This document shows positions 13,486 to 31,640 of a stretch of 64,000 bases of DNA, piece by piece. A program made the translations under genes and the position numbers. How positions within the stretch are numbered: the first letter of the stretch is position 1; each line of letters begins with the position of its first letter. The DNA comes from Myxococcales bacterium (GTDB lineage: Bacteria > Myxococcota_A > Polyangia > Polyangiales > Polyangiaceae): contig JADKKK010000003.1 of assembly GCA_016720545.1 (NCBI GenBank), forward strand, positions 217,516-281,515, given 5' to 3'. The notes under the pieces are model-generated. The model was not told the DNA's origin and did no database searches. It was given only the letters and a program-made list of their open reading frames with translations.

Positions 13486-14601
13486 TCAGCGCCGACGCTG
13501 CGCGGCTTCGTAGACCGAGGCCGGCAGGTCGAGCCCGTGCTCGTGCAGTTGCTCGATGCAACGAGGGATGATCCCGGTCGGGCCGATCGTGCTCTCGATC
13601 TTTCCGGACGGGTCGAACCCTTGGTACTCGCGCACGAAGATGTCCTGCATCTGATACGAGCTCGTGGTCGCATCATACCCCAAGACCTCGGTCACGTGCG
13701 TGATCTTGCGGCTGCCGTCCTGGAGGCGCGACACCTGAACGATGAGGTTCACGGCCGAGGCGATCTGCACGCGGAGCGCGTGGAGCGGCATGTCGACGTC
13801 GCTCATCATGCCCATGGTCTCGAGGCGGGTGATGGTGTCGCGCGGGTACGTGGCGTGGAGCGTGGACATACAGCCGCCGTGGCCCGAGGTCATGGCTTGC
13901 ACGAGGTCGAGCGCCTCGCCGCCGCGGATCTCGCCCACGACGATGCGGTCGGGGCGGAGGCGGAGGGTCGCGCGGAACAGGTCGCGGATCTTCACCTCGC
14001 CCTTGCCCTTTGGATCGGGCGGGCGCGCTTCGAGCTGGCACACGTGCACGCGCTGGAGCTGCAGCTCGCGGGAGTCTTCGATGATGACGACGCGCTCTTC
14101 GTCGGGGATGAAGGACGAGAGCGCGTTCAACATCGAGGTCTTGCCAGACCCCGTGCCGCCGGCGATGAGCACGTTGAGCTTCGACGCGACGAACACCTTC
14201 AGCGCCTCGGCGACCTCGTCGGTCATGGCGCCGAAGTTGATGAGGCGCTGGACGGTGAGGGTCTCCTTGAAGAACCGGCGGATCGACACGCAGGGGCCGT
14301 CGGGGGCCGCCGGCGGAAGCACGGCCTCGATACGCGATCCGTCGGGCAGGCGCCCCTCGAGGATCGGTCGCTCTTCGTCGATGTGCTTGCCGACGTACTG
14401 CGCGGCGTTGCGGAGCGCCGCGGTGAGGTGCTCGACGCTCTCGAACTTCGAGTCGGAGAGGTGGAGCGTCCCCTTCTTCTCGAAGTAGATCTGCCCCGGC
14501 CCGTTGATCATGATGTCGCTGACGCCCGGATCCTCGAGGAGGGGCCGGATGGGGCCGAAGAACTGGAGGAGCGTCTCTTCGAATATTTCCTTCGGAATCA
14601 T
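13486..14601 (-). CDS. CpaF/TadA-family secretion ATPase (short form, no FHA)
   Basis: It has a Walker A ('[10 protein letters not shown]') and the conserved CpaF/VirB11 core ('RIVVGEIRGGEALDLVQAMTSGHGGCMSTLHA'). The ATG at 14601 overlaps the stop of the upstream TPR lipoprotein (ATGA). Confidence 0.8.
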   Translation of the reverse strand: MIPKEIFEETLLQFFGPIRPLLEDPGVSDIMINGPGQIYFEKKGTLHLSDSKFESVEHLTAALRNAAQYVGKHIDEERPILEGRLPDGSRIEAVLPPAAPDGPCVSIRRFFKETLTVQRLINFGAMTDEVAEALKVFVASKLNVLIAGGTGSGKTSMLNALSSFIPDEERVVIIEDSRELQLQRVHVCQLEARPPDPKGKGEVKIRDLFRATLRLRPDRIVVGEIRGGEALDLVQAMTSGHGGCMSTLHATYPRDTITRLETMGMMSDVDMPLHALRVQIASAVNLIVQVSRLQDGSRKITHVTEVLGYDATTSSYQMQDIFVREYQGFDPSGKIESTIGPTGIIPRCIEQLHEHGLDLPASVYEAAQRRR

Positions 14602-15230
14602 GGCGTATCGCCCTCGACGCGGTGAAGGATGGAGGCCCGCGCTTCCTCGACGTGAGAGCCCTTCGGGTCGAGCCGGAGGTACTCGCGAAAATGAGCGTCC
14701 GCGGCCACGAGATCTTGCTCCGCGTCCCGCAGCAGCACGGCGAGCGCGTAGTGCGCTTGGGCGTCGTTGGGGCGCGCCGCGAGCACGCGCTCGAACTCGA
14801 CGCGGGCGAGCTTGGGCTCCTCGGTCGCCGAGTACAGCGACGCGAGCACGAGGCGCACGCGCACGTCGTTCGGGTGTTTCACGAGGTGCTCGCGCGCGTA
14901 CTTCGCCGCGAGCCGAAAGCGCGACTCCTTGATGCACACCTCGAGCAGCAGCGGCATGATCTGCCGAGGGTCGCCGCCTTGGGCGAGCGCGTCGGCCAGG
15001 TACTCCTCCGCGCGCACGTAGTCGCCCACCGCCGCGAAGCCGCGCCCACGCGAGATGAGCTTGTCGACGGTGTGCTCGCGGCTGTACGTGGCCACGTCTG
15101 CCTTGATGGTCTCCGACACGGAGGGCGGCCCGCACGCAGCGGCACCGAGCGCCACGAGCGTCGCCGTCAGCGCGCGCGCGTGTATTATGCACGAGTTTAG
15201 GAGGGCGGCTCCCCGGCGCGCGGCGCTCAC
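14598..15230 (-). CDS. TPR-repeat lipoprotein
   Basis: It has a lipobox ('LVALGAAAC') and TPR repeats. The proposed GTG start at 15230 overlaps the TGA of the upstream FHA gene (GTGA). An alternative ATG at 15290 would overlap that gene by 64 nt. Confidence 0.5.
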   Translation of the reverse strand: MSAARRGAALLNSCIIHARALTATLVALGAAACGPPSVSETIKADVATYSREHTVDKLISRGRGFAAVGDYVRAEEYLADALAQGGDPRQIMPLLLEVCIKESRFRLAAKYAREHLVKHPNDVRVRLVLASLYSATEEPKLARVEFERVLAARPNDAQAHYALAVLLRDAEQDLVAADAHFREYLRLDPKGSHVEEARASILHRVEGDTP

Positions 15231-16102
15231 GTCTTCTTGGCGGCCTCGCCGATTTTCAGCTTCAGCTTTCTGTCGAGGTTCGAGAGCCATGTCACGTACT
15301 CGCCCGTCTTTCCGCTGGTGAACTGCTGAAGAATGCGGACCTGCCGCTGGGCGAGCGCCCAGTCTTCCACGGAGAGCGCGTGGTCGAGCCGCACCTGCTG
15401 TGTGCGGTAGTCGTCGTTGAGCTCGGCGCGCATGGCCCGGGCCGCCTGGTCGGCGATGCCCGCCGAGACAGCGTCGCCACCGACACGGTAGCACGCGGCC
15501 GCTTCCTCGAACAAAGGGACCGCGTGGACGCCATCGGCGACGTGGAAGGGCCGGCGCTCGCGCTTCGCGTCGGCGATGGCCATGCGCTCCTGCGCGCGGG
15601 CGAGGCCCTGCGCGCCGCTCACGGGGCAGGCCGCGATGGGCGGCCCCCAGAGGACGGGCGCCTCCTTCTTGCCGAGCACCGGCCCGGTGGCCTCGTCAGG
15701 GGCGAGGAACAGGTAGCCGGCCGCCGGGAGCATGAGCGCGAGGCCGATGAAGGCCAGCGGGCTCTGCCCTTTCTTCTTCTGCTGGGTCTGGCCACCGAGG
15801 CCAGCCGAGTCCGCGATCGCGACGGCGATCTGGGTCTGGTTGACGCCGAGCACCGCGTCCGGCGGGAGCGGCGACTGCATGAAAGGGACGTTGTTGATCG
15901 TCGGCGAGGGCTGGAAGTTCAGCGCCTTCGCGAAGACGCCCGCCGGGCCGAGCTCGATGAGGAGGTGCTCGACGGCCGCCTGATCGAGCGGCAAGCGGAT
16001 CTCGCAGTGCGCGCCGCTGCCGATGAGCACGCGCTCGGACTCGATGTTGAGCTGCTCGATCTGCCCGGTGGGGAGTCGGATCTGGAAGCGTAGGACGCGC
16101 AC
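15227..16102 (-). CDS. FHA-domain membrane protein
   Basis: The N-terminus is FHA-like ('ERVLIGSGAHCEIRLPLDQAAVEHLLIELGP...PTINNVP') and there is a central TM segment ('LAFIGLALMLPAAGYLFLA'). Confidence 0.6.
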   Translation of the reverse strand: MRVLRFQIRLPTGQIEQLNIESERVLIGSGAHCEIRLPLDQAAVEHLLIELGPAGVFAKALNFQPSPTINNVPFMQSPLPPDAVLGVNQTQIAVAIADSAGLGGQTQQKKKGQSPLAFIGLALMLPAAGYLFLAPDEATGPVLGKKEAPVLWGPPIAACPVSGAQGLARAQERMAIADAKRERRPFHVADGVHAVPLFEEAAACYRVGGDAVSAGIADQAARAMRAELNDDYRTQQVRLDHALSVEDWALAQRQVRILQQFTSGKTGEYVTWLSNLDRKLKLKIGEAAKKT

Positions 16103-16123: not shown

Positions 16124-17035
16124 CTAGAGGCCGCCCGTGATGTTCATCATGGCGGGGCCAAGGATGAGCCCCATGATGGCGAAGAAGACGAGCATCAGCG
16201 GGCCGACCATGGCCACGCCCGCCTTCGCCGCCGACTCCTCCGCGCGAACGGAGCGGCGCTGACGCGACACGCCCGCTTGGATGCTGAGCACCTCCGAGAC
16301 CGGGTTGCCGCGCTCCTCCGCTTGGACAAGCGAGTTGACGAACTCGATCACGGCCTCGCAGGGGCAACGGTTCATGAACTCGATGAGCGCGTCCTTGCGG
16401 GTGCGCCCGAGGTTCATGGTCTGGAGGAGGAGAGTGAACTCCTCGACGATGGGGTCGGCCGGGTTGCTGGACTTCTCGACCACTTGGCGAACGGCCCCGG
16501 GGAAGTCGAGGCCCGCACCCATGGAAAGCGCCATGAGATCGATGACATACGGCAAGCCCCGGCTGACCGACTTGAGTCGCTCTTGGGCCTCGCCGCTGAT
16601 CTGCATGTAGGGCATCGACCCGCCGAGCGCGAGGCCGGCGATGAGCGTGATCTGCCCGAGGTCCATCATCCAGCCGAAGATGCCGCCCACGACGCCGCCA
16701 GCGACCGTCGCGAGGATGGTGAGCGCGATGTACTCGTCGGCGCTGATGCCCATGAAGTCGCCGGCGAGGCCGATCTGCTTGTCGAGGGCCGCGCGCTGCT
16801 CGTCGGTGGGCAGGCCGCTGACCCGGAGGCCGAGCCAGCGCACGATGGGCTCGATGCTGGCCCAGGTCTCGTTGTTCGCCAACGCGCGCTGGCGCTTCAG
16901 GCCGCGGAGGCCGAAGCGGCTCGCCACGCGGCTCGGCGCGCTGCCGATCGTGTAGAGGGCCAGGGCGGCTGCGAAGCTGATGAGGACCGGCACCGAGTAG
17001 CGGAGGGTGAGGAGCTGCCAGGAGTAGGTGGGCAT
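16124..17035 (-). CDS. TadC-like pilus-assembly inner-membrane platform protein (T2SSF family)
   Basis: It is a polytopic membrane protein with GspF/TadC-like sequence ('GLPYVIDLMALSMGAGLDF'), located directly downstream of the TadB-like gene. Confidence 0.7.
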   Translation of the reverse strand: MPTYSWQLLTLRYSVPVLISFAAALALYTIGSAPSRVASRFGLRGLKRQRALANNETWASIEPIVRWLGLRVSGLPTDEQRAALDKQIGLAGDFMGISADEYIALTILATVAGGVVGGIFGWMMDLGQITLIAGLALGGSMPYMQISGEAQERLKSVSRGLPYVIDLMALSMGAGLDFPGAVRQVVEKSSNPADPIVEEFTLLLQTMNLGRTRKDALIEFMNRCPCEAVIEFVNSLVQAEERGNPVSEVLSIQAGVSRQRRSVRAEESAAKAGVAMVGPLMLVFFAIMGLILGPAMMNITGGL

Positions 17036-17036
17036 G

Positions 17037-17921
17037 TCAGAGGTCCACCGCGAGCACCTTGCGGGCGATGATGATGGAGCTGGCCCAACACGCGACGCAG
17101 CCCGTGCTGATGAGGTACCCGGTGACGCTCTTGGTGAGCGGGTCGAAGTAGCCGGGCCAGAGCGAGTTCAGGCCGACGAGCAAGCCGAACGGCATGACCG
17201 CGATGACCCAGAGCTGCATCTTGCCCTCGGCGGTCTTGGTGCGGACGACGCCCTCGAGGCGGCGCATCTCGCGGAGCGTGTTGGCCGTCGCCTCGAGCAC
17301 CTTCGGGAGATTGCCGCCGACCTGCCGACCGATGAGCACGGACGAGAGCGCCGAGTCGAGCTGGCGGCTGCCGACCCGCGCAGCCATGTGGAGCAGCGCC
17401 TGATCGAGCGTGCTGCCGACCTTCATCTCCTTCAGCGCGAGGTCGACCTCCTGACGCATCGGATCGGTGATGACCGACGCGACCGAGTTGAGCGCGCCGC
17501 CGATGCTCGGCGTGGTCTTCAGGGCGTTCGCGAGCGCGAGCATGAAGTTGTCGAGCTGCTCTTCGATGAGCTCGACCCGCTTGCGGCGCATGGCCTCGAT
17601 GTAGACGAGCGGCACCACCGCGATGAGGAGCAGGCCCGCCCACCACATGGGGATGGAGAACAGCACGTTCGCCGTGATGAGGAAGAACGCCACGCCGAGC
17701 TGCCCGAGCGTGATGTTCTGCCCCGGGATGAAGATGAACATCGGCCGCAGGCGCTGCTCGAGCAGCGAGTTGTAGCGGGCCCAGTAGCGGTACACGGGAC
17801 CCGACTGATCGGCCGCGGCGGCCCACGTGCCAGCGAAGAGCGCGAGCCCGGTGACCCCGGCGCTCGCCCACTTCAGCACCTCCGTCACGGGGGACACGTC
17901 CCCCATTCTGCCGCTCATCAT
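17037..17921 (-). CDS. TadB-like pilus-assembly inner-membrane platform protein (T2SSF family)
   Basis: It is a polytopic T2SSF-family protein. Its ATG overlaps the stop of the upstream ATPase (ATGA at 17918-17921). Confidence 0.7.
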   Translation of the reverse strand: MMSGRMGDVSPVTEVLKWASAGVTGLALFAGTWAAAADQSGPVYRYWARYNSLLEQRLRPMFIFIPGQNITLGQLGVAFFLITANVLFSIPMWWAGLLLIAVVPLVYIEAMRRKRVELIEEQLDNFMLALANALKTTPSIGGALNSVASVITDPMRQEVDLALKEMKVGSTLDQALLHMAARVGSRQLDSALSSVLIGRQVGGNLPKVLEATANTLREMRRLEGVVRTKTAEGKMQLWVIAVMPFGLLVGLNSLWPGYFDPLTKSVTGYLISTGCVACWASSIIIARKVLAVDL

Positions 17922-19789
17922 ACGTAGGGCTCCCCGGGCTTCACGAGCCCCATCACGATGAACGTATCGAGGAACGACGGCAAGTAGCCCGTGGCGCGGA
18001 ACTCACCCACGACCTTGCCGCCTGGGCCCGTGCCCGTGCGCACGAAGGCGAAGATGTGGCGCAGCTCGATGTCGCCCGATTCGCGATCGAGGCCGGTCAC
18101 CTCGCTTATCGCGGTCACCTTGCGCGAGCCGTCGGAGAGGCGGCTCTGCTGGACGATCATGTTCACGCTCCCCGCGATCTGCTCGCGGATCGCGCGGACC
18201 GGCAGGTCGAGGCCCGACATGAGCACGAGCGTCTCGAGGCGGTTGATGGCCTCGCGCGGGGAGTTCGCGTGGGTCGTGGTCATCGACCCGTCGTGTCCCG
18301 TGTTCATGGCCTGGAGCATGTCGAGCGCCTCGCCGCCGCGGCACTCGCCGACGACGATGCGGTCGGGGCGCATACGCAGGGCGTTCTTCACGAGGTCGCG
18401 GATGGTGTACTCGCCGCGCCCCTCGAGGTTCGGCGGGCGGGTCTCGAGCGAGACGACGTGCGGCTGCTGCAGCTGGAGCTCGGCCGCGTCTTCGATGGTG
18501 ACGATGCGATCTTCCTCGGGGATCGAGGCGGAGAGCACGTTGAGCAGCGTGGTCTTCCCGCTGCCCGTGCCGCCCGAGATGACGATGTTCTTCTTCGCGA
18601 CCACGCAGCGCGTGAGGAAGCGGCCCATCTGCGTGGTCATCGAGCCGTAGTTGACGAGCTTCTCGAGCGTGAGCGGCACCTTCGAGAACTTGCGGATGGT
18701 GATGCACGCACCGCGGAGCGCGATGGGCTTGATGACCGCGTTCACGCGGGAGCCGTCTTTGAGGCGCGCGTCGACGAGCGGCGACGACTCGTCGATGCGT
18801 CGGCCGAGCGGCGTGACGATGCGCTCGATGACCGCGCGCACGCGCTCGTCGTCGGTGAACCGAGCCTCCGACAGCATGAGCTTGCCGCTGTTCTCGATGT
18901 AGATCGTGTTGGGATCCACGACCATGATCTCGCTGACCTTGGGGTCGGAGAGGAAGCGCTCCAGCGGCCCAAGGCCCAGGGCCTCGTCGGAGAGCTCGCC
19001 GATGAGCGTGTCGCGGTCGATCTCGGGCGGGATCTTCAGCGCCATGTTCGCCACGATCTGGCGGAGCGCGGTGAGCACCTTCGGGCGCATCGAGGGGTCG
19101 TCGAGCTTCTTCGCGTCGATGGTGGCGAGATCGAGGTGCTCGAGGAGCGCCTTGTGGATCTCGCGGCGCATTTCGACGTCTTTTCTTCGCTCTTCGTCGC
19201 GGGGCCGCGACGGCATGAGCTGCGCCTGCATCGCCGGGTTCTGCCCGAGCGCCTGGGGAGGGAGCGGGGGCGCCACGCCGCGCGTCTGCGCGTGGTGCTG
19301 CTGCATGTGCGCGGGCACCTGCCCCGACATGCCCATGTGACCCTGCTGGCCGCCGTGCTGCCCGTGCTGCCCTCCGTGCGCCCCCGGCTGACCCATGTGC
19401 GGGGGCATCTGCGAGGGCATCGGCGGCGGCGCCATCGGCGGCAGGCCCGTCCGCGGGCGGGTCTGCGGCGGCGGCGGCGCCTGCGGCGCGTCGCCCGGGA
19501 AGAACGCGACCGTGAAGTCGCCGAGCACCACCGGTGTGCCGAACGGCACCTCGATCGCCTCGCGCTTCAGCAGAATGCCGCCGGCGAGCGTGCCGTTCGT
19601 GGAGACGTCCTCGACGAGGATCGACTGCGGCCCAATCTGCACGACCGCGTGCTGCCGGGACACGAGATCGCTCTCGAGCCGGAGCACGCACTGCGCGTGA
19701 CGCCCGATGGAGATGGGTCCGGTGACGGCCATCGTCTCCTGACGCTGGCCCTGAGACTCCGACTGGATGAGGACCCGAACCGAGGTCAT
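17918..19789 (-). CDS. FHA-domain-fused CpaF/TadA-family secretion ATPase
   Basis: The N-terminus is a canonical FHA ('[30 protein letters not shown]...DVSTNGT'). A ~170-aa Pro/Gln/His/Met-rich low-complexity linker follows. The CpaF core comes next, with Walker A ('[10 protein letters not shown]') and '[32 protein letters not shown]'. An AGGAG ribosome-binding site lies 6 nt before the ATG. Confidence 0.85.
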
Positions 19790-19828: not shown

Positions 19829-19888
19829 GCTACTTGGCCGCTTACTTGGCCGCTTACTTGGCCGCTTACTTGGCCGCTTACTTGGCCG
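19829..19888. repeat. 12-bp tandem direct repeat (cttacttggccg) x~5
   Basis: Four perfect units plus one degenerate unit lie immediately 3' of the secretin gene. The rightmost unit supplies the secretin stop codon (TAA), and each further unit carries TAA in the same frame. The repeats are in the intergenic space before the FHA-CpaF gene. Confidence 0.75.
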
Positions 19889-21206
19889 ATGGGGGAGCCT
19901 TCGGGAAGGCCTCCACGTTGTCGATGTCCCCCGAGTAGTCCTTGAAGCTGTTCAAGGCGTTGTTGATGATCTCGAGCGAGCTCTTCGGCACCGAGTCCAC
20001 GACGCTGGGGATGATGAACACAGCGCCTTCGGTCTCGGCGTTGTCCCAGCGCTGGCTCCCGAAGAGCGCCCCGACGACGGGCAGCTGCGCGAGGCCCGGC
20101 AGGCCCGCGCTGTCGCGGCGACGGGTCTGGGTCTTGATTCCCGAGAGGACGAGCGCTTGGCCAAGCTTCAGCGTGACGAGGGTCTCGAGCTTGGTGGTCG
20201 AGCGCCCCGGCACCGTGCCCGAGGCCGCCGGCGTGAGGTCGGCCACATCGGCCGCGAGCTTGATCTCGACGTCCTTCGAGTTGACGTCGTACCGCGGCAG
20301 CACGGTCACGTTCGTGCCGAACTGCACCTTGACGAGGCCTACCGAGTTCGCGGTGACCTGCTGGAAGTTCTGCTCGCCGCCGCTCTGGAAGGTGGCCTCG
20401 GAGCCGTTCGACGTGATGACCGTCGACTGCTTCATGATGCGCACCCAGCCGTAGCGCGACCCGATGTCGAGGCGCGGCATGGGCTGGTTCACGATGTTCG
20501 CCTCGGCGCGCGTGGCGGTCTTGGCGATGAAGTCGAAGTCGATGCGCGTGGCGACGATCTGCTGGCCTTGGCCGGAGACGCCGCCGATGGCGTCGGGCCA
20601 CCCGATGCCCACCGTGTAGTTCCAGCTCTTCTCGTACTGGACGAAGTAAAAGTCGAGTCGCATCAACAGCTTACGGTCGGCGGCGCCCTGCCCCACCGTG
20701 ACCACCGACTCGACCTGCCCTTGATACAGCGAGGCGATCTGCTGGATGCGCTTGGAGTCGGATTCGCTCGAGACGCCGCCCTCGATGAACACGCGGCCGC
20801 CCACTCGACGCACCCGAATGCCCGGGATGCCCTCGAGGAGCTGCACGAGCTCCTTCTCGACCACCTGCGGCGGGCGCTGAGCCACCGAGATGTCGTACGT
20901 CACCTGCGACTTGTCCTTGCGGATGAGGAGCAGCGTGGTGGAGCCGGGCTTCACGGCGCGGAGCACGAACTGCGACTTGTCGTCGGTGAGCTGCACGCTC
21001 ACGATGCCGGCCTGACCCTCGGTGTACTGGTCGATGCCGGACGCGGGGATGGTCTTGGTCTCGCCGATGGCGAGCGCGATGTCCTCGCGCTTCTGCGAGC
21101 CCTGCGCCGCGGCGGCGCGAGGCACGATGGAGAGCGAGATCGCCGAGGCGACCCCCATCGCCCCCGCGAGCCAGAAGATACGTGTGGAGCGCTTCAAGCT
21201 AAGCAT
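19878..21206 (-). CDS. Secretin, CpaC/RcpA-like outer-membrane channel
   Basis: The internal ATG gives a signal peptide ('MLSLKRSTRIFWLAGAMGVASA'). The C-terminal secretin domain reads '...LVLSGIKTQTRRRDSAGLPGLAQLPVVGALFGS...AVFIIPSVV'. Its start overlaps the CpaB stop (TGATG). The upstream 170 aa of the track ORF are rejected. Confidence 0.75.
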   Translation of the reverse strand: MLSLKRSTRIFWLAGAMGVASAISLSIVPRAAAAQGSQKREDIALAIGETKTIPASGIDQYTEGQAGIVSVQLTDDKSQFVLRAVKPGSTTLLLIRKDKSQVTYDISVAQRPPQVVEKELVQLLEGIPGIRVRRVGGRVFIEGGVSSESDSKRIQQIASLYQGQVESVVTVGQGAADRKLLMRLDFYFVQYEKSWNYTVGIGWPDAIGGVSGQGQQIVATRIDFDFIAKTATRAEANIVNQPMPRLDIGSRYGWVRIMKQSTVITSNGSEATFQSGGEQNFQQVTANSVGLVKVQFGTNVTVLPRYDVNSKDVEIKLAADVADLTPAASGTVPGRSTTKLETLVTLKLGQALVLSGIKTQTRRRDSAGLPGLAQLPVVGALFGSQRWDNAETEGAVFIIPSVVDSVPKSSLEIINNALNSFKDYSGDIDNVEAFPKAPPSAK

Positions 21207-22033
21207 CACGGGTTCTGTCCTCCGCCACCGATCACGGTGGGCCCCCTGGGTGTACGCACGCCAGGGATGGTGGCCCGCTGCTCGGGCTTCAAGATTGCGT
21301 CCATGTTGATGTCGACCAGACCGACCGTGGTCTTGTTGTCCTCGGGGTTGCGGACCGCGACCGCGAGGCGGCCACGCTCGGCGGCGAGGGCGAGGATCTG
21401 GGCCTCCGGGAGCGTGAGGCTCAGCGTGAGGAGGTTCTCGCGATCGGCCGACTTGTCGCGGCTCTCGCTCGCCTCGACCGACGTGTCGACGCCCGTCGCG
21501 AGCACGAGGACGCGCTGGAGGAGCACCACCGCGTTCTTCGCCTCGCTGATGCCGCCGGCGCCGAGGACGCCGATGACGTCGACGTAGTCGCCCGGGCGGA
21601 TGAGCGCGATGCTCGAGTCGTCGCGGGCGGTGCGGATCGACACCGCGCGGTAGCCCGGCTGCACGAGCACGCTGAGCTCCTTGCGGTCCTCGTTCGCCGT
21701 GGCGAGGTCGGTCCACATGAGGGTCTGACCGGCCTTCACGGTGGTGCCCACGCGGAGGTTCAAGATCTTCGACTTCTCGGCCTCCTTCACGGAGCGCTCT
21801 TCGACGTAAGCGATCGGGATCTCGCGCGTCGCGATGTTGTCTTCGCTCAGCGCCTTGCCGCGATCGACCTGCTTGACGACGGTGAGCACGCGCACGCGCT
21901 CACCGCCGGAGGCCTCGACCTCGAAGCGGCGCTGGTACAGAAAGAGCAGGAAGATCCCGAGGATGCCGACCACGACGGCGATGGCGAGGGCGCGACGATT
22001 CACGAAGTGGCCTCCGCGTGGGCGTCCGAGCAC
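21206..22033 (-). CDS. CpaB-like Flp pilus assembly protein (SAF domain)
   Basis: It has an N-terminal TM ('ALAIAVVVGILGIFLLFLY') and CpaB/RcpC-like sequence, and lies immediately upstream of the secretin. Confidence 0.65.
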   Translation of the reverse strand: MLGRPRGGHFVNRRALAIAVVVGILGIFLLFLYQRRFEVEASGGERVRVLTVVKQVDRGKALSEDNIATREIPIAYVEERSVKEAEKSKILNLRVGTTVKAGQTLMWTDLATANEDRKELSVLVQPGYRAVSIRTARDDSSIALIRPGDYVDVIGVLGAGGISEAKNAVVLLQRVLVLATGVDTSVEASESRDKSADRENLLTLSLTLPEAQILALAAERGRLAVAVRNPEDNKTTVGLVDINMDAILKPEQRATIPGVRTPRGPTVIGGGGQNP

Positions 22034-22249: not shown

Positions 22250-25177
22250 TCAGAAGCTCACGCTCACGTTCGCGAGGAAGCTGCGCCCGTTCTGCAGGAT
22301 CGTGCGCTGGCGGAACTCGCGGCTCGGAATCGATTCGTAGCGGGAATCCGCGAGGTTGTACGCGCCCACGGCGTACCGAGCGTTCAGGCGCTCGATCTCG
22401 CCGGAGAACACGAGGTCGCCGACGATGCCCGCGCGCGACGAGCCCTGGGGCGGGTCGGTCACTTCGTTGTCCGAGTCGAAGCGCGGCCCCTCGACCGAGA
22501 CGCGCATCATGGCCATCAGCGATCTCCCCACGATCGGCGCCGCGCCCTTCACCGAGCCGAGCACCACCGGCGAGTTGGGGACCTGGCGGAGCGTTGGAGC
22601 GTCGAGGTACCGCGCCTTCTGCACCGAGACGGTGGCGCTGGCCATGAAGCCCTGACGCCACTCGCGTCGCAGCTCCGCCTCGCCACCCGCGACGAGGACG
22701 GGCGAGTCGCTGTTCTCGTAGCGGAGCTTGCCCGCCGAGATCTCCTTCAGCTCGATCAGGCCGCTGACGTAGTTCGTGTATCCTGCAAGGAGCGCGACGA
22801 GCGTCGGCGAAATTCGCTGCGACACCTCGACCTCGCCCGAGGTGACCTGCTCGGGCTTCAGGTCCGCGGCGGCGGCCCGATCGGAGCCGTTCGAGAAGAG
22901 CTCGTAGACGCTCGGCGAGCGGAACGCCTTGCCGCCGAGCAGCTTGATCTTTCCGCCCTTCCACGTGTCGAAGATCAGCGCGAGGCGCGGGTTCGTCGCG
23001 CCGAGCGGATCGAAGGCGACGTTCGAGTAGTAGTCGACGCGGGCGCCCGCGGAAATCTTCACGGCCTTCACGGGCGTGATGTCGCCGACCAGGTAGCCGG
23101 CGGCGTTCATGTAGGGGTCGTTGCGGTTCGTGTAGACCTGCGACGCGTCGGCCGCGAACTGCCTCGCCTGGAGGTGCCCGATGAGCTCGGCGCCGACGGT
23201 GATGCGCAGGGAGTCGGCGGGCTTCAGGACGAGGCGCTGCTCGCCGCCGATCCACTTCCCGTAGAACACCTCGGTCTCGAGGCTCGGGCGCGGATCAGAC
23301 CCGTAGGTGCCGTAGTAGTTGTAGAGGTTCAGGTGCACGCGCGAGAGGCTCTCCACGCGCTTGCCGAGGTTGGGCTCGACGCGCAGCTCGACGAGCCCGC
23401 GTGTGTCGCGGACCTTGCTGCGCGGGTCGCCGAGGACCGACTCGTACGCGCCGGTGGGGATGCTCTTGGTCCGATGCGACAGCATCCACTGCACCGTGAT
23501 GAAGCGCCACCAGGCACGCCCCCCGATCGAGCCGGCGCTGAAGCCATCCGCGTTGCGGACGTTGCCGTCGGACGGGAGGCCGTCGGCCCCGAGCTCGGGG
23601 TCCGTCGCGCGGGGGTCGTTCCGGTACTCGGGGAAGTAGAAGTCCCGGCCGCCGCTCCGGGCGATCGCGAGGGAGGTCCACACGCCCCCGTCTTCGCCTA
23701 GCCGCAGAACCCCGGTCGCGCGCGCACGACCGACGCCGTCGAGCGCGGTGCCTCCGGCGACCTCTCCGTGCGTGCGCACCTGACGGCTGCGAGTGACGAG
23801 GTTGATGACACCGAAGAACGCACCGGTACCGTAGAGGACGGACCCCGGGCCTCGGACCACCTCGATGCGGTCGATGTCGTCGAGGTCCACACGGGCGTGG
23901 AACCCCACCAGGGACGAGCCGGCGTAGTTGTCGTTCGTGGACTGCCCGTCGATCGTCACCAGGATGCGATTGCCATAGTCGCCGGGCCTCGAGAAGCCAC
24001 GCACGCCGACCGCTTCGTAGTTTCGATCGTCGCTCAGGTACATGCCGCGCACACCACGCACGGCCTCCGAGATGGTGGGGTAGCCCATCGCGCGGAGCTC
24101 GGCGCCGGTGATGATGGTGACCGACGCGGGCGCGTCCTCCACCGACTCGAGCGAGCGCGAAGCCGCGGCGACCTCGTCGAGCTCGAGCAGCTCGGCCTCC
24201 ACCTTGGCCTGAGTCTGCTTCCGCACCCTGACCTTGCGGACCACGGCGCGGTAGCCGCCCTTCTCGACGCGCACCTCATGTTCACCTTCGGTGATCGACA
24301 GCACGGCGGGGGTGAATCCGCTCGCGTTGCCGTCGACCGTCACCAGCGCTTCGCGGACGTCAGCGGACACGAGGAGCGTGCCGAACACGGCGGCGAGGCG
24401 CGGACGCACGACGGTGGTCGCGTTCGCGGCGATCTCGGCCGCCACCTCGACTCCCTGAAATCCGTTCTTCGTGACGTACAGCGTCCGGCGGCCCATCGGC
24501 AGGCGCTCCGTGCACGGGATCACGCAGAGCGGCTTCGCGTCCTCCGGAGCGAGCCGAACTTCCGCGCCGGTCGGGTCGCCCTCGACCCGAAGAGTCCCGA
24601 AGATTGGCGCGAGCGGGATTCGAACGGTCGTGTCGGTGCCGAGCTTCAGCTCGACCCCCTCGACCTTGCCGGGCTCGTGGGCCGCTCGCTCGCCGAGGAA
24701 GGTGTAGCGGCCGGCAGGCAGCGCGAGGACCATGGGCGTCTGCCCGCGCGCTCCGAGGTCCTTGCGGTCGATGAAGAGCGTCGCGCCTGGCGGGGTCGAC
24801 TCCACGCGGACGACCGCGACGAGCGGCCTGATGCGCGCGATGGCGTCGCCGATGCGAGTCCGGATCGCGGGGTCGGGCTCTCCGTCCAGCGCGCGCTGGT
24901 AGTAGCGGTACGCGTCCGCCGGCTGCTTCAGCTGCTCGTAGGTCCGCGCGATGTTGAAGAGCACGTTCTTGTTGGGAACGAGCCTGTTGGAGGCCAGAAA
25001 ATGCTCGAGCGCGCCGTTGAAGTCGCCGACCTCGTAGCGCTTCGCTGCGAGCCGAAACTGGAAGTCCGCCTCGTCGGCGACGTCGTCGGCGTAGGCCACG
25101 GCGGACACGCCGAAGAGGCCCACCAGTGAGAGGGCTGTCAGTCCGAGGCGGAGAACGCGCGGAGCCTTGCGGAACAT
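22250..25177 (-). CDS. TonB-dependent-receptor-like outer-membrane barrel with N-terminal TPR and three PEGA-like domains
   Basis: It has a signal peptide, then TPR ('YEVGDFNGALEHFLASN...YEQLKQPADAYRYYQRAL') and three PEGA/carboxypeptidase-regulatory-like repeats. A TonB-dependent-receptor plug follows ('DAPASVTIITGAELRAMGYPTISEAVRGVRGMY...RGFS') and then a long beta-barrel ending in Phe. Confidence 0.75.
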   Translation of the reverse strand: MFRKAPRVLRLGLTALSLVGLFGVSAVAYADDVADEADFQFRLAAKRYEVGDFNGALEHFLASNRLVPNKNVLFNIARTYEQLKQPADAYRYYQRALDGEPDPAIRTRIGDAIARIRPLVAVVRVESTPPGATLFIDRKDLGARGQTPMVLALPAGRYTFLGERAAHEPGKVEGVELKLGTDTTVRIPLAPIFGTLRVEGDPTGAEVRLAPEDAKPLCVIPCTERLPMGRRTLYVTKNGFQGVEVAAEIAANATTVVRPRLAAVFGTLLVSADVREALVTVDGNASGFTPAVLSITEGEHEVRVEKGGYRAVVRKVRVRKQTQAKVEAELLELDEVAAASRSLESVEDAPASVTIITGAELRAMGYPTISEAVRGVRGMYLSDDRNYEAVGVRGFSRPGDYGNRILVTIDGQSTNDNYAGSSLVGFHARVDLDDIDRIEVVRGPGSVLYGTGAFFGVINLVTRSRQVRTHGEVAGGTALDGVGRARATGVLRLGEDGGVWTSLAIARSGGRDFYFPEYRNDPRATDPELGADGLPSDGNVRNADGFSAGSIGGRAWWRFITVQWMLSHRTKSIPTGAYESVLGDPRSKVRDTRGLVELRVEPNLGKRVESLSRVHLNLYNYYGTYGSDPRPSLETEVFYGKWIGGEQRLVLKPADSLRITVGAELIGHLQARQFAADASQVYTNRNDPYMNAAGYLVGDITPVKAVKISAGARVDYYSNVAFDPLGATNPRLALIFDTWKGGKIKLLGGKAFRSPSVYELFSNGSDRAAAADLKPEQVTSGEVEVSQRISPTLVALLAGYTNYVSGLIELKEISAGKLRYENSDSPVLVAGGEAELRREWRQGFMASATVSVQKARYLDAPTLRQVPNSPVVLGSVKGAAPIVGRSLMAMMRVSVEGPRFDSDNEVTDPPQGSSRAGIVGDLVFSGEIERLNARYAVGAYNLADSRYESIPSREFRQRTILQNGRSFLANVSVSF

Positions 25178-25251
25178 ACGGGAGACACGTTACGCGGACG
25201 GGCGACCGCGCCGGCGATGAAAAGCGCGCGGCCCGAGCGAATCGGACGGCG

Positions 25252-26775
25252 TCACCGCTGGAGGATGATGTCCCCGGTCGCGGGCGGCTTCACGGCGGGC
25301 ACCGGCGAGGACGGCGCCGCCTTGGGGTGCCCCGCCGCGTTCGTGTGAGCGCCCTTGGTAGGCGACGCGGATGCGGTGGGCGCGGCGCTCGCCGAGGCGA
25401 GGGCGCTCGCGGACGGTGCGGACGCCAAGGCGACCGGCAGGGCAGTCGCGCTCGGCGGGCTCACGAGGGTGGCCGCCGGCGGCGGGGCGGGCGCGGTGGC
25501 CTGCGTCGCACGCCAGACGAGGACGATCGCGAGCGAAAGCAGCCCGAGCGCCGTGGCGCTGGTCGAGATCACGAGGGCGATGTTGCGGCTCGGTGGCGGG
25601 GCGCCGTGGACCTCGGGGCCGGTCGCGGAGGCCATCGAGAGCCCGGTGCCAGGGGTCGAGCTGCGCTCCTGGCCGGCGAGCGTCACGCCCACGACAGGGG
25701 CGGCGGCGGAGGCCACCAGGCTAGGCTGCGGCCCGCCCGTGGGAAGCGACGCGTCGGCGGTGGGCAACTGCGGGAGGTCGAGCGGGGCGAGCTCGCCCGT
25801 GACCATGAGCGGGCCCCTCGAGAGCTGTCGCTCGATGACGGCGCGGATACGCGCGCGCTCCTCCGCGAAGTGCTCGGCGACCGCCGTGCCCACTGGGCGA
25901 AGCTGCGGGGGCGGGTCGAGCGTCGCCAAGTACGCGTCGATCGGGGCGCGCATCGCGGCCGCGGTGGAGAACCGGTCGTCCGGCTTGGGCGCGAGCGCGC
26001 GAGCGCACACCTCAACCAGCGCCGGTGGCGCGTCTGGGGCGAACTCGGTGAGCTTCGGCAGCTCGCCCATCGCGAGGTAGTGGATGATCCCTGCGTCCGG
26101 GAGATCCTTCCACATGCGTCGGCCCGCGACGGCCTCCCACAGCATGATGCCCACGGCGAAGATGTCCGCGCGGCGATCCACCTTACGGCCCAGCGCCTGC
26201 TCGGGCGCCATATAGGAAATTTTTCCTTTGATGACGCCGGTTTGCGTCTTCTGCGACGACGTCGCCGCCTTCGCGACGCCGAAGTCGACGACCTTCACCT
26301 GGCCGTCGAAGGTGACGAAGACGTTGTGCGGGCTCACGTCGCGATGCACGACGTTGAGCGGCGTCCCGTCCCAGTCGACCGCCTCGTGCGCGGCGTGGAG
26401 GCCCTCGAGCACCTCGGCGAGGACACGGACGTGAGAGTCGACCGAGAGCGCTCCTTTGCGAATGAGGCGGGAGCGCACGTTGGAGAGGGGCTGCCCCTCC
26501 AGGTACTCCATGACCAGCATGTACTTCCCGTCGCCGTCCATGACCTCGTAGGTCTGGACGATGTTCGGGTGGTTTAGGCGCGCCGCGAGCCGCGCCTCGT
26601 CGAGGAACATCTCGCGAAACTCGTACTCCTCCGCGAGCTCTGCCTTCAGCTGCTTGACGACGACGAGCTTGGTGAAGCGGCTCGGCCCCTCGGCGGCGGC
26701 GAGGTAGACCGTCGCCATGCCTCCCCGCCCAAGCTCCCCCAGGAGGCGGTATTTTCCAAGGGTAGGCTCCGTCAT
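25252..26775 (-). CDS. Ser/Thr protein kinase with TM segment and Ala/Pro-rich extracytoplasmic tail
   Basis: The kinase motifs are present ('LGRGGMATVYLA', 'VVK', 'HRDVSPHNVFV', 'DFGVAK', 'YMAPEQ'), followed by a TM ('IALVISTSATALGLLSLAIVLV'). Confidence 0.85.
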   Translation of the reverse strand: MTEPTLGKYRLLGELGRGGMATVYLAAAEGPSRFTKLVVVKQLKAELAEEYEFREMFLDEARLAARLNHPNIVQTYEVMDGDGKYMLVMEYLEGQPLSNVRSRLIRKGALSVDSHVRVLAEVLEGLHAAHEAVDWDGTPLNVVHRDVSPHNVFVTFDGQVKVVDFGVAKAATSSQKTQTGVIKGKISYMAPEQALGRKVDRRADIFAVGIMLWEAVAGRRMWKDLPDAGIIHYLAMGELPKLTEFAPDAPPALVEVCARALAPKPDDRFSTAAAMRAPIDAYLATLDPPPQLRPVGTAVAEHFAEERARIRAVIERQLSRGPLMVTGELAPLDLPQLPTADASLPTGGPQPSLVASAAAPVVGVTLAGQERSSTPGTGLSMASATGPEVHGAPPPSRNIALVISTSATALGLLSLAIVLVWRATQATAPAPPPAATLVSPPSATALPVALASAPSASALASASAAPTASASPTKGAHTNAAGHPKAAPSSPVPAVKPPATGDIILQR

Positions 26776-30273: not shown

Positions 30274-30818
30274 CAGTCCACCTTGTACCTTGCGCCTTGA
30301 TTGGGCATCGTCGCTTCGGCCGTGAGGATCTTGCGAGAGCCGGGACAGATGAGTCGACCCATGGGGACCGTGCAGCTGTAGGTCGCCTGCACGCGCACCC
30401 GAACGGGTCCGTAGACGTCGGACATGCTCGAACCGTCTTGGACCGAGACGCTGACGTTCGAGACGGAGCCGCTCGTGATCCAGGGGCTCAGCGCGAGGCC
30501 GGCGGCCTGCTTGACGTCGGTGTTGCTGCCCTTTTCGCCGGGGTTGGTGGGCTTCTTCACCATCACGATGGCCGCGCGCGCCGCGGTGATCGCCGCGTGC
30601 TGAACGCCGAGGTTGACGGTGTAGATCTTCGCCACCTGTACGAAGGAGAAGAACGTGGTGAGCAAAGGCACGACGGCGATGACGAACTCGACCAGGGCCG
30701 CTCCGCGACGATCGTGGAGGAGCGACGCGGGCGCAGAAGCCGAGTCGGAGCTGCCGGAGTCGGCGGAGCCTGACTCATGCGGCGCAGGATTAAAAAATAC
30801 CGACCTGAGCGACTTCAT
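30273..30818 (-). CDS. TadE-like pseudopilin
   Basis: It carries the TadE signature 'RRGAALVEFVIAVVPLLTTFFSFVQV'. The ATG at 30818 was checked. Confidence 0.65.
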   Translation of the reverse strand: MKSLRSVFFNPAPHESGSADSGSSDSASAPASLLHDRRGAALVEFVIAVVPLLTTFFSFVQVAKIYTVNLGVQHAAITAARAAIVMVKKPTNPGEKGSNTDVKQAAGLALSPWITSGSVSNVSVSVQDGSSMSDVYGPVRVRVQATYSCTVPMGRLICPGSRKILTAEATMPNQGARYKVD

Positions 30819-31484: not shown

Positions 31485-31640
31485 TCAGAGCTGCTGGGTC
31501 GCGTTCGTGGCCGAGCGACCGACGACGGGGCCGAGCGCCTTGAAGGCCGCAGCGGCGAGCAGCAGGACGGCGACGAGGAGGAGCGCGTACTCGACCATGG
31601 AGGCGCCGCGGGACTTCATGCGAAGGATCTGCTTGTTCAT
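31485..31640 (-). CDS. flp: Flp/Fap-family pilin (51 aa)
   Basis: The manual translation is MNKQILRMKSRGASMVEYALLLVAVLLLAAAAFKALGPVVGRSATNATQQL. It carries the Flp motif 'G/ASMVEYAL' and has a GGAGAAG ribosome-binding site. It is absent from the ORF track only because it is short. Confidence 0.75.
   Translation of the reverse strand: MNKQILRMKSRGASMVEYALLLVAVLLLAAAAFKALGPVVGRSATNATQQL

Follow-up and report, generated by a model that had tools for sequence, protein, structure and literature searches.

A predicted class III CpaF motor ATPase with a tethered FHA domain in a Kil-like Tad cluster of a Polyangia-type myxobacterium

CpaF ATPases that carry an N-terminal FHA domain have been described as class III CpaF, with the Achromobacter xylosoxidans protein E3HIW0 as representative (Yen et al. 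2025, Nat Commun, PMC12019362). According to that study they occur mostly in Betaproteobacteria, and the intrinsically disordered region (IDR) of CpaF is needed for full pilus dynamics, not for ATPase activity. The class II CpaF of Caulobacter crescentus (8rjf, 8rkd, 9e24) has no FHA domain, and nothing is found at the end of its own 79-aa IDR; its disordered N-terminus was dispensable for pilus extension, with phage sensitivity as the readout (PMC11300603). A myxobacterial counterpart with an FHA domain is KilF (MXAN_3107), the ATPase of the Tad-like Kil predation apparatus of Myxococcus xanthus, which is diffuse at first, forms clusters upon contact with prey, and is needed for killing (Seef et al. 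2021, PMC8460266). The Kil system also carries many accessory FHA proteins (KilD with 2xFHA/TPR, MXAN_3104, and MXAN_4648/4649), and its phylogeny was based on a four-protein supermatrix (PMC8460266). Reviews call FHA proteins “promising candidates” for the switching of Tad/Kil pili (PMC12428579).

We analyzed a stretch of 64,000 nucleotides, hereafter the window, in which one gene encodes a protein with the order FHA, IDR, three-helix bundle (3HB), NTD and catalytic ATPase domain (CAD). This FHA-IDR-3HB-NTD-CAD architecture is not new: it was described for class III CpaF by Yen 2025 and for KilF by Seef 2021. The window protein shares its domain order with class III CpaF; it differs in tether composition, in having a kinase encoded in the same operon and a second ATPase, and in coming from a Polyangia-type myxobacterium rather than a betaproteobacterium.

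A contiguous Kil-like Tad cluster

Gene content and order place the gene in a Kil-like Tad cluster that is complete and unsplit and belongs to a Polyangia-type myxobacterium. The cluster consists of a Flp pilin, a prepilin peptidase, pseudopilins, RcpC, a short secretin, FHA-CpaF, TadB, TadC, a YscD-like FHA/TM protein, a TPR protein, and a second short ATPase, in that order, and the synteny of these genes is kept in relatives (positions below are those of the window; a minus sign marks the reverse strand). The putative Flp-type pilin of 51 aa (…SRGASMVEYALLLVAV…; 31485..31640, −) was assigned from its sequence and position, the latter being occupied in relatives by small ORFs of 42-59 aa or, in L086, by a larger 135-aa gene with a Flp_Fap match. 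It is accompanied by a CpaA/KilA-like prepilin peptidase of the A24 family (30815..31357, −; inferred start MIPFLIAAV; PF01478, 55.8 bits), a TadE-like pseudopilin (30273..30887, −; PF07811, 24.3 bits), a second TadE-like pseudopilin (28281-28796; PF07811, 23.0 bits), and a KilB-like RcpC/CpaB protein (21206..22033, −; PF16976, 69.4 bits, plus SAF). The short CpaC/KilC-like secretin (19878..21206, −; Secretin, 87.5 bits, with a weak pil_N match) measures 442 aa from its inferred start MLSLKRST, and gene calls in relatives range from 434 to 447 aa.

On the other side of the FHA-CpaF gene lie two inner-membrane platform proteins, one resembling TadB/CpaG/KilG (17037..17921, −; T2SSF, 54.8 bits) and the other TadC/CpaH/KilH (16124..17035, −; T2SSF, 52.7 bits). 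They are followed by a 291-aa protein (15227..16102, −) with a YscD/PrgH-like, degenerate FHA N-terminus, a TM segment at 114-135, and a periplasmic domain. Its match to Yop-YscD_cpl (20.7 bits, E=5e-4) falls below the cutoff of 33.2, and neither the GR nor the SxxH residues are present; the protein is the positional equivalent of MXAN_4649, measures 287-292 aa in relatives, and is the one accessory FHA-like protein in the cluster. The adjacent TPR protein of ~210 aa (14598..15230, −; TPR_14, TPR_16, and TPR_19) has a lipobox-like LGAAAC, contains no FHA domain, and is kept in relatives. The last gene encodes a second, short CpaF-like ATPase of 371 aa (13486..14601, −; T2SSE, 193 bits) without FHA, IDR, and most of the 3HB. 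This protein is 47% identical to residues 253-622 of FHA-CpaF, its Walker A and His box are intact, it was found in 12 related loci, and it forms a separate clade in a neighbor-joining (NJ) tree with 100% bootstrap support.

Both here and in Kil, a myxobacterial FHA-fused CpaF-type ATPase is encoded directly after a short secretin, the order TadB, TadC, PrgH/YscD-like FHA protein, TPR protein matches that of MXAN_4651-4648, and a Flp pilin, an A24 peptidase, RcpC, and TadE-like pseudopilins are present. However, the Kil cluster is split in two, while that of the window is contiguous. In addition, the window lacks a KilD-like 2xFHA protein after the ATPase and an MXAN_3104-like FHA protein (L013, by comparison, has a KilD-like gene), its secretin gave no BON domain in a Pfam scan, and it encodes two ATPases, whereas Seef et al. 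describe one (PMC8460266).

Domain architecture of the FHA-CpaF protein

The ORF runs from 17918 to 19789 on the reverse strand, as already given in the preliminary description. It encodes 623 aa from an ATG start, and its stop overlaps the start of TadB by 4 nt (17918-17921). Based on its Pfam FHA and T2SSE matches, the whole ORF is assigned as a class III CpaF/TadA (KilF-like) protein, that is, the predicted motor ATPase of a Tad (type IVc, Flp) pilus machine, for which hexameric activity is predicted. The T2SSE model (PF00437) matches residues 271-548 with 216 bits (E=8e-64). The nearest solved proteins found by phmmer are the C. crescentus CpaF entries 9e24, 8rkd, and 8rjf (E ~1e-117, covering query residues 168/211-615), and the same entries rank at the top with Foldseek, at 48% identity; the disordered N-terminus, three-helix bundle, NTD2, and catalytic domain are common to both proteins. 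The Walker A motif GGTGSGKT occupies residues 406-413. An Asp box, a Walker B motif, a His box, and arginine fingers are present as well. Residues K412, E437, E482, H507, R342, R348, and R472 correspond to K287, E312, E357, H382, R217, R223, and R347 of CpaF, respectively; all 7 are invariant in an alignment of 113 sequences. Together, these matches bear out the earlier assignment of a complete CpaF core. NTD2 and the C-terminal ATPase domain span residues 282-623 (17918..18946, −; Walker A at 18551-18574), a region that averages 89% identity among homologues. The best NCBIfam match, TIGR03819 (TadA-family conjugal-transfer-associated ATPase), scores 330.3 bits, which is under its curated cutoff of 373, and FHA-CpaF is therefore not filed in that sub-family.

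The N-terminal 100 residues (19490..19789, −) had been read as a textbook FHA domain, and a domain search classed them as such: PF00498 matches residues 26-90 (E=1.5e-9) with 38.6 bits, above its gathering cutoff (20.7). The motifs IGR, SRQHA, and STNGT lie at residues 28-30, 44-48, and 63-67, respectively, and AlphaFold2 (AF2) models residues 1-100 as a beta-sandwich with a pLDDT of ~90, except for loop 64-76. We compared the protein with 120 homologues from independent assemblies among the matches listed (121 sequences including that of the window). Residues G29, R30, S44, R45, H47, N65, and G66 are invariant in all 121 sequences, while the remainder of the domain, outside the phosphate-contact residues, averages 64% identity.

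The preliminary description placed a linker of ~170 aa between the FHA domain and the core, which proved too long. The disordered part measures ~95 aa (residues ~101-195; 19205..19489, −), given that AF2 pLDDT values stay below 50 only up to residue ~195, that helices begin at residue 197, and that mean identity among homologues is 21% for residues 99-195 but 75% for residues 196-270. Residues ~196-281 (18947..19204, −) instead form a conserved three-helix bundle (H197-219, H232-248, and H259-270 in the AF2 model), which aligns with CpaF from about chain residue 10 of the 8rkd construct. In other words, this stretch is the counterpart of the three-helix NTD1/3HB of CpaF, and the linker takes the position of its disordered N-terminus, NTD0/IDR (PMC11300603, PMC12019362). 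The bundle had been counted as linker because the Pfam T2SSE model begins only at residue 271.

The linker is rich in Pro, Gln, Gly, Ala, Met, and His (22, 16, 14, 10, 9, and 8 of 97 residues, respectively), with 5 charged and no aromatic residues; the low-complexity string pointed out previously corresponds to residues 133-166. Among homologues, the tether ranges from 56 to 158 aa and is hypervariable in sequence. A proposal that it might bind metal finds some footing in the 8 His and 9 Met of the window linker and in a mild, family-wide enrichment of His in tethers (median 5%). However, the GGQHGQHGG tract is confined to the window and its 2 closest relatives (P0001 and P0002, in both of which it is 8 residues shorter) and is encoded on short, slippage-prone DNA tandem repeats (19341-19488). 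In relatives whose cores are 82-92% identical, the linkers are Pro/Met-rich and contain few His, those of Myxococcaceae, the family of Kil, are acidic and rich in Glu and Tyr, and no conserved His or Cys position was found in the tether across the homologue alignment. We therefore consider a metal-binding or metal-sensing role very improbable. The exact sequence of the tether, including the His/Gln tract, is probably functionally unconstrained, with only its disorder and approximate length under constraint.

Since the linker is of low complexity and free of stops in all 3 frames, we considered whether the FHA and CpaF parts could be separate genes merged by a frameshift or by faulty assembly, a concern that the preliminary description had raised itself. 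FHA and T2SSE occur in a single ORF of 578-683 aa in all 120 of the listed homologues, and GC3 is highest in the same frame throughout (0.91 in the FHA domain, 0.96 in the linker, and 0.92-0.95 in the core). Because of these 2 results, and with the same architecture in print (PMC12019362, PMC8460266), an artefact was rejected, and we give it practically no chance. A fused FHA domain was further confirmed with Pfam in Myxococcaceae, Burkholderiales, Thauera, a Gammaproteobacteria MAG, and Lentisphaeria. L010, which belongs to the same ATPase clade, has no FHA domain at all, implying that the domain is dispensable in some lineages.

To place the protein among its homologues, we used a single-protein NJ tree of the ATPase with 300 bootstraps, in which deep nodes are unresolved. 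The Polyangia-type clade is supported by 99% and the Myxococcaceae pair by 100% of bootstraps; an exclusive union of both, whose cores are ~65% identical between the window protein and the Myxococcaceae orthologues, received 0%. The Burkholderiales FHA-CpaFs fall outside the group of the query in this single-gene tree, subject to the same unresolved deep nodes.

An in-operon kinase and its TonB-receptor-like neighbor

Between the pseudopilin and RcpC genes, the cluster encodes a membrane-anchored Hanks-type Ser/Thr kinase of 507 aa (25252..26775, −; Pkinase, 141 bits). Its VVVK lysine and its HRD, DFG, and APE motifs make it look catalytically competent; a single TM segment lies at ~398-421. 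The activation-loop residues T172, T177, and T179 and a juxtamembrane T326-G-E-[L/I] are kept in 12 of 12 orthologues, and the protein is 100% identical to P0121, from an NCBI MAG annotated “Myxococcales bacterium”. Next to it lies a gene for an outer-membrane TonB-dependent-receptor-like protein of 975 aa (22250..25177, −), assigned by Pfam and a signal peptide, which contains TPR, 2 PEGA domains, a Plug, and a beta-barrel. The two genes belong to the operon and are read in its direction, with intergenic gaps of 74-216 nt.

The kinase, or a full-length orthologue, was found at the same position beside a TonB-receptor-like gene in all 7 contexts inspected (the window, L082, L083, L084, L088, L089, and L090), even where identity drops to 60-66%. 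However, 8 of 15 related loci have FHA-CpaF but not the pair, which was not found among the Pfam-annotated gene calls of L081, L085 (a complete Labilithrix luteola genome), L086, and L087, nor by tblastn at L001, L004, L012, and L022. The ATPase of L081 is 82% identical to the query and retains its FHA domain, and L081 groups with the kinase-bearing L082 on the ATPase tree, which suggests a loss of the pair that left the FHA domain in place. With 4 Ser/Thr kinases encoded in the 64 kb of the window, or roughly one every 16 kb, closeness by itself says little about a link. The preliminary description had proposed a substrate of this kinase as the partner of the FHA domain. This proposal is helped by a kinase that looks competent and is dedicated to the cluster in 7 loci, and is limited by the 8 FHA-keeping loci without the pair. 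The locus kinase cannot be the reason for the conservation of the FHA domain, and is plausibly a lineage-specific input rather than its general partner. No PP2C phosphatase match was found among the cluster ORFs and the other large window ORFs scanned.

A possible phospho-switch on the Tad motor

All canonical phosphothreonine-contact residues are kept and do not vary among the 121 sequences; the most reasonable reading of the FHA domain is therefore that a phosphothreonine partner gates or recruits the protein, as suggested earlier. We consider it probable that the tethered domain recruits or licenses the Tad ATPase through a kinase-made phosphothreonine. The hexameric motor would act on the TadB/TadC platform as Caulobacter CpaF does, and a Hanks-type kinase would place a phosphothreonine on a membrane-proximal partner. 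The FHA domain, on its long flexible leash, would bind this phosphothreonine and thereby gather at the platform an ATPase that is otherwise cytoplasmic, or free it for assembly there, so that Ser/Thr phosphorylation would switch on pilus assembly. The best candidate writer in this sub-lineage would be the membrane kinase of the cluster (25252..26775), paired with the outer-membrane TonB-receptor-like protein; in relatives without the pair, another of the many kinases of the genome would have to write the mark. Such behavior of the ATPase would match the change of KilF from diffuse to clustered when prey is contacted. The literature searched contained no report of a Tad-ATPase FHA domain binding a phosphopeptide or controlling assembly. 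Points that we weighed against this mechanism are the missing kinase in 8 of 15 FHA-keeping loci, the lack of a PP2C match among the ORFs scanned, the FHA-less L010, and pilus extension in Caulobacter that, judged by phage sensitivity, does without the disordered N-terminus of CpaF (PMC11300603).

Several other readings of the FHA domain were weighed. The domain could dock directly on the in-cluster kinase or its substrate, as part of a dedicated trans-envelope switch in which the FHA-ATPase works with the kinase and the TonB-like protein. In mycobacteria, FHA proteins are known to dock on kinases that have autophosphorylated, and the juxtamembrane T326-G-E-L/I, whose sequence agrees with the pTxx(I/L) that FHA domains commonly prefer, offers a candidate site. 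The operon position of the pair, its retention in the 7 contexts, and the threonines kept in all 12 orthologues also favor this reading. With the FHA domain intact in the 8 loci without the pair, the apparent loss of the pair in L081, the density of kinases in the window, and FHA-CpaF fusions being far older and more widespread than the kinase (PMC12019362), we consider it possible but unlikely. Alternatively, a phosphorylated Thr in the tether could be bound by the FHA domain of a neighboring subunit, promoting oligomerization or clustering of the ATPase by the logic of Rv1747 or Rad53/Chk2. Thr is present in 111 of 121 tethers, T-x-x-[ILVM] in 68, and a TRxR near the tether start in 57, including the QTRPRTG of the window. 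No Thr position is conserved family-wide, though: 10 tethers have no Thr, and in several close relatives (P0007, P0010, P0015, P0087, and P0112) the TRxR site holds Ser or is absent, while phosphoserine is not read by FHA domains, making self-association quite improbable.

The domain might also serve as a phospho-independent protein-protein module that needs no kinase, like YscD/PrgH of the T3SS or EssC of the T7SS. In line with this, it also scores against the Yop-YscD_cpl model (22.6 bits), the second FHA-like protein of the cluster (15227-16102) has lost its phosphothreonine residues, and no phosphatase match was found in the cluster. However, R30, S44, R45, H47, and N65 are invariant in 121 sequences against 64% identity in the rest of the domain, a pattern expected from selection for phosphothreonine binding, and phospho-independent FHA-like domains typically lose the contact residues, as the neighboring 291-aa protein did. 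We therefore hold a purely scaffolding role to be improbable.

For the preferred mechanism, recruitment or licensing through a phosphothreonine, the T6SS of Pseudomonas aeruginosa (PpkA/Fha1/PppA with TagQRST) offers a functional analogy, and threonine phosphorylation in T6SS was invoked for Kil by Seef et al. as well (PMC8460266). Both systems combine a cluster-encoded membrane Hanks kinase with an FHA domain whose phosphothreonine residues are intact, although on the window side this is limited to the sub-lineage; both have an envelope component beside the kinase, and assembly on contact is thought of for both. In the T6SS, the FHA domain is on a scaffold protein and a PP2C phosphatase takes part in the pathway, whereas in the window it is fused to the motor ATPase itself and the ORFs scanned gave no PP2C match. 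Furthermore, the envelope sensors TagQRST have their place taken by a TonB-receptor-like barrel.

A more specific and rather doubtful extension is that this Polyangia sub-lineage may own a trans-envelope phospho-switch together with an FHA-less second ATPase for division of labor. The outer-membrane TonB-receptor-like protein would sense contact or an envelope cue and activate the adjacent single-pass Hanks kinase, whose phosphothreonines (e.g., T326-G-E-L/I) would be read by the tethered FHA domain and license pilus assembly locally. The second ATPase, lacking both FHA and 3HB, could then cover, for example, retraction or a constitutive mode. Such a division of labor is absent from described Tad systems, as all are reported with one bifunctional ATPase, and the conserved second short ATPase challenges that generalization.

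The locus reveals no new architecture. It is a compact, contiguous version, in which one operon encodes the FHA-ATPase together with its own membrane kinase and a partner in the outer membrane, and some sister lineages are natural knock-outs of the kinase pair. It thereby touches on the question of how Tad/Kil pili are switched on in place and time, especially on prey contact in predatory myxobacteria, and supplies concrete candidates that could write and read a phospho-signal.

A CpaF-type motor carrying a tethered FHA domain

The protein encoded at 17918..19789 (-), FHA-CpaF, is a motor of the CpaF type whose catalytic residues are all present; it carries a phosphothreonine-competent FHA domain on a flexible tether and is surrounded by the genes of a full Tad machine. 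In a window of ~70% G+C, the gene is a 623-aa ORF with an ATG start, a GC3 of 0.94 and the codon-position GC typical of a real gene. The motifs and the low-complexity string quoted in the preliminary description are present in the protein, and the FHA domain proposed there was recovered by Pfam, which assigns residues 26-90 to FHA (E=1.5e-9; 38.6 bits against a gathering cutoff of 20.7) and residues 271-548 to the T2SSE secretion-ATPase domain (216 bits). Its top NCBIfam matches are TadA, VirB11 and TrbB-type ATPases, every one below the equivalog cutoff, and the nearest solved structures, in three sets, are all of CpaF from Caulobacter crescentus (E ~1e-117, query residues 168/211-615). Caulobacter crescentus CpaF entries also ranked first (48% identity) in a Foldseek search with an AlphaFold2 model; the whole-protein model returned ATPase matches only, and nothing independent on the FHA domain. 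The catalytic and arginine-finger residues of CpaF reported by Hohl et al. (K287, E312, E357, H382, R217, R223 and R347) correspond here to K412, E437, E482, H507, R342, R348 and R472, all of which are invariant in a 113-sequence alignment.

The possibility that a frameshift had joined two genes was ruled out on two grounds: FHA and T2SSE lie in a single ORF of 578-683 aa in all of the 120 best homologues listed, which were drawn from independent JGI, ENA, NCBI and Logan assemblies, and GC3 peaks in one frame throughout the gene (FHA 0.91, linker 0.96, core 0.92-0.95). The fusion itself therefore stands, and the original observation was essentially right, but the length of the linker needed correcting from ~170 aa to ~95 aa, since the last ~75 residues counted form a conserved three-helix bundle. 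In the AlphaFold2 model, built from the 113-sequence alignment, residues 1-100 form a confident beta-sandwich (block means 77-91, except for the loop at 64-76), pLDDT falls below 50 across ~101-195, and helices at 197-219, 232-248 and 259-270 precede the alpha/beta domains. Caulobacter CpaF has a disordered segment at 1-79 (NTD0/IDR), a three-helix motif at 80-149 (NTD1/3HB) and NTD2 plus CTD at 150-502 (PMC11300603, PMC12019362); considering this layout together with the zones of the model, we place the linker where CpaF has its native disordered N-terminus. Measured against FHA-CpaF, the 120 homologues listed average an identity of 0.64 in the FHA domain, 0.21 across residues 99-195, 0.75 across 196-270 and 0.89 in the T2SSE region.

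The tether varies widely in both length (56-158 aa, median 100, among the homologues listed) and composition. Only the window and the two relatives nearest to it have the GGQHGQHGG-type tract, which is 8 residues shorter in both relatives; relatives with 82-92% core identity have Pro/Met-rich tethers, and Myxococcaceae orthologues have acidic, Glu/Tyr-rich ones. The DNA beneath the Gly/Gln/His and Pro/Met tracts (19341-19488) consists of short imperfect tandem repeats with periods of 9, 12, 15 and 21, and the 8-residue indel is consistent with replication slippage as the driver of linker length variation. Selection on the tether appears to act on disorder and rough length.

The surrounding Tad cluster and its relation to Kil

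The Tad cluster around FHA-CpaF is complete. In order of transcription, all on the minus strand, it comprises genes for a Flp pilin (31485-31640), an A24 prepilin peptidase (30815-31357), a TadE-like pseudopilin (30273-30887), an unannotated 486-aa protein (28813-30273), a second TadE-like pseudopilin (28281-28796), an unannotated 333-aa protein (27257-28258), a small Cys-rich protein (26868-27260), a Hanks kinase with one TM segment (25252-26775), a secreted TPR/2xPEGA/Plug/barrel protein (22250-25177), RcpC (21206-22033), a 442-aa secretin (19878-21206), FHA-CpaF, a TadB-like protein (17037-17921, overlapping the ATPase stop by 4 nt), a TadC-like protein (16124-17035), a 291-aa protein with a sub-threshold YscD-like FHA N-terminus, a TM segment and a periplasmic domain (15227-16102), a TPR protein with a lipobox-like sequence (14598-15230) and a second ATPase of 371 aa (13486-14601). 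The Tad gene order is repeated in Polyangia-type relatives, the complete Labilithrix luteola genome among them.

Several of these genes have features of their own. The Cys-rich protein directly upstream of the kinase has ~130 aa, with a hydrophobic N-terminus and 16 Cys in its C-terminal ~90 residues; in relatives, kinase-less ones included, its slot holds a gene of 110-127 aa. The N-terminus of the 291-aa protein is degenerate FHA-like (Yop-YscD_cpl, 20.7 bits, below cutoff), with the GR and SxxH residues lost, and is followed by a TM segment (114-135) and a periplasmic domain of ~155 aa, a topology equal to that of T3SS YscD/PrgH; all Polyangia-type relatives encode the protein, at 287-292 aa and without a Pfam annotation, and its position is that of MXAN_4649 in the Kil cluster. 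The TPR protein (~210 aa) carries the lipobox-like 'LVALGAAAC' behind a hydrophobic stretch and may be a TadD-like pilotin lipoprotein, although Kil reportedly does without TadD. Downstream of the short ATPase lies a conserved 501-aa gene (11918-13423, -), of 516-588 aa and without a Pfam family in relatives. Its N-terminus looks FHA-like by eye (…LSIGRRGQWRIDG…), but Pfam gives nothing, and we did not accept it as an FHA protein. The window also carries a type IVa pilus gene set at 36531-41088 (-), with a PilQ-type secretin (AMIN, STN/N0 and Secretin domains; 36531-38945, -), PilO (39730-40377, -) and PilN (40378-41088, -), so that two different type IV filament systems lie ~5 kb apart.

The FHA-CpaF architecture has already been published twice: Seef et al. 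list MXAN_3107 (KilF, the ATPase of the Kil predation apparatus of Myxococcus xanthus) as 'FHA domain; P-loop NTPase' in their Supplementary file 1 (PMC8460266), and Yen et al. 2025 sorted 292 CpaF orthologues into three classes, of which class III has this domain order (PMC12019362). Pfam further confirmed a fused FHA domain in CpaFs of Citreicoccus (Myxococcaceae), Piscinibacter and Quisquiliibacterium (Burkholderiales), Thauera, a Gammaproteobacteria MAG, a Lentisphaeria MAG and the MAGs L005, L036 and L045. From these confirmations and the two papers we conclude that the fusion is widespread and that FHA-CpaF joins a known architecture. Our scan of the genome collection with universal CpaF motif patterns retrieved mostly generic CpaFs among 80 loci, ~15 of them informative. 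A clade-specific FHA HMM scored 18/91 as fused, a biased lower bound that missed divergent FHAs such as that of locus L066 (an FHA-like N-terminus by eye only), and we therefore preferred Pfam.

As a reference for Kil cluster 1 we used the Citreicoccus locus, L013, which encodes an FHA protein, an A24 peptidase, a BON-secretin, the FHA-ATPase and a 2xFHA protein, corresponding to MXAN_3104-3108. As in Kil, the FHA-ATPase of the window lies directly behind a short secretin, and the order TadB, TadC, YscD/PrgH-like FHA protein, TPR protein matches MXAN_4651-4648. Unlike the split Kil system, the window cluster is contiguous, contains a second ATPase, has neither a KilD-like nor an MXAN_3104-like protein, and its secretin has no detected BON domain. 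A bootstrapped NJ tree built on the ATPase core puts the window's protein in a Polyangia-type clade (99%) and groups the Myxococcaceae pair together (100%); an exclusive union of the two received 0%, with deep nodes without resolution, and orthology to KilF is not proven by this phylogeny. Given these shared and differing features and the tree, we call the cluster Kil-like, a myxobacterial system of the same general design, and claim no strict orthology. The same ATPase clade (97% bootstrap) includes that of the Polyangia MAG locus L010, in whose 21 kb FHA is found nowhere and the short second ATPase is retained; the conserved ATPase core starts from ~10148, and the ORF begins ~60 residues ahead of the three-helix bundle. 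By implication, FHA was either lost secondarily in L010 or gained later in the sister lineages.

A conserved second ATPase

The short ATPase (13486-14601, -) is CpaF-like, 371 aa long and 47% identical to FHA-CpaF residues 253-622. Its Walker A and B motifs and its His box are intact, and the FHA domain, the IDR and the greater part of the three-helix bundle are missing; the minimal CpaF architecture of Yen et al. is 3HB-NTD-CAD (PMC12019362). Twelve related loci of the Polyangia type (L002-L004, L010, L012 and L081-L087) have kept this protein, and the short ATPases form their own clade with 100% bootstrap. A 568-aa ORF at 13486-15192 was rejected as a long second ATPase, because the sequence, together with the gene calls in relatives, gives a 371-aa ATPase starting with MIPKEIF at position 14601; the 197 codons upstream are a stop-free extension crossing the TPR gene (14598-15230), which uses another frame and, by the relatives' gene calls, overlaps the short ATPase by 4 nt. 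To our knowledge, Tad systems have been described with one bifunctional ATPase, and a conserved second one is at odds with this current picture.

Candidate partners and the role of the FHA domain

The preliminary description linked the FHA domain to the kinase encoded in the cluster. In this Hanks kinase (25252-26775) the catalytic Lys is present along with HRD, DFG and APE, and residues 398-421 form a TM segment; its orthologues are full-length with 59-76% identity. Together with the secreted 975-aa TPR/2xPEGA/Plug/TonB-barrel protein it forms a pair (22250-26775, -) inserted between the pseudopilin genes and rcpC. The kinase gene is followed by the TonB-like gene at the same position in 7/7 readable contexts (the window and loci L082, L083, L084, L088, L089 and L090), with kinases only 60-76% identical; the pair is thereby well supported as a module dedicated to the Tad cluster. 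Locus L081 lacks the pair and has a clean junction; its ATPase shows 82% identity to FHA-CpaF and clusters with the one of L082. The pair is also missing from L085-L087 and, by tblastn, from L001, L004, L012 and L022. All eight of these loci (L001, L004, L012, L022, L081 and L085-L087) retain FHA, and the FHA fusion is far older than the kinase insertion. STPK matches near L002, L003 and L010 (27-33% identity, no TonB-like partner) were treated as background kinases.

The window encodes four Ser/Thr kinases in 64 kb, so proximity of a kinase alone means little; the other three lie at 2273-4663 (-), 48922-51441 (+) and 54997-57807 (-), the last with HEAT repeats. Among the window ORFs scanned we found no PP2C phosphatase, and among the large ones no other stand-alone FHA protein. 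In the kinase orthologues, the activation-loop residues T172, T177 and T179 are conserved, as is a juxtamembrane T326-G-E-[L/I] in 12/12. FHA domains commonly prefer pTxx(I/L), and T326-G-E-[L/I], which fits this pattern, is by sequence a candidate docking site for the FHA domain. As a dedicated in-cluster module, the locus kinase is a plausible lineage-specific FHA partner, but singling it out partly over-reaches, as eight FHA-bearing loci do without the pair.

As the most likely mechanism, we propose that the hexamer would act at the platform formed by TadB and TadC, in the manner of Caulobacter CpaF, and that the tethered FHA domain would grip a phosphothreonine on a membrane-proximal partner, by which the motor may be recruited or licensed. 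The best candidates for the input would be, in this sub-lineage, the kinase of the cluster and its partner in the outer membrane; elsewhere another kinase would have to serve. Such a switch resembles PpkA-Fha1 control of T6SS assembly, an analogy also drawn by Seef et al. (PMC8460266). Recruitment or licensing would also fit the behavior of NG-KilF, which is diffuse before prey contact and clustered after it (PMC8460266).

Other roles for the fused domain can be envisaged. That FHA acts as a phospho-independent scaffold is unlikely; its phosphothreonine-contact residues (G29-R30, S44-R45-x-H47 and N65-G66) are invariant in 121/121 sequences. Self-association of the ATPase via a phosphorylated tether seems slightly less probable still: a TRxR motif occurs in 57/121 tethers, but no tether Thr is universal, and a conserved phospho-acceptor is thus only partial. 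Metal binding by the tether, suggested for its His/Gln/Met-rich sequence, is very improbable, because the tether is variable and the window shares its His tract with the nearest two relatives only; across the family, His enrichment is mild (median 5%), with no position conserved. Gating by a phosphothreonine partner was a reasonable interpretation that went partly too far on the specific kinase and on metal binding.

Our literature searches yielded no functional assay of the FHA domain of any Tad ATPase, and a 2025 review still calls the FHA proteins of the Kil cluster 'promising candidates' (PMC12428579). For this domain, whose regulatory role is predicted from sequence, the compact cluster offers explicit candidate partners.
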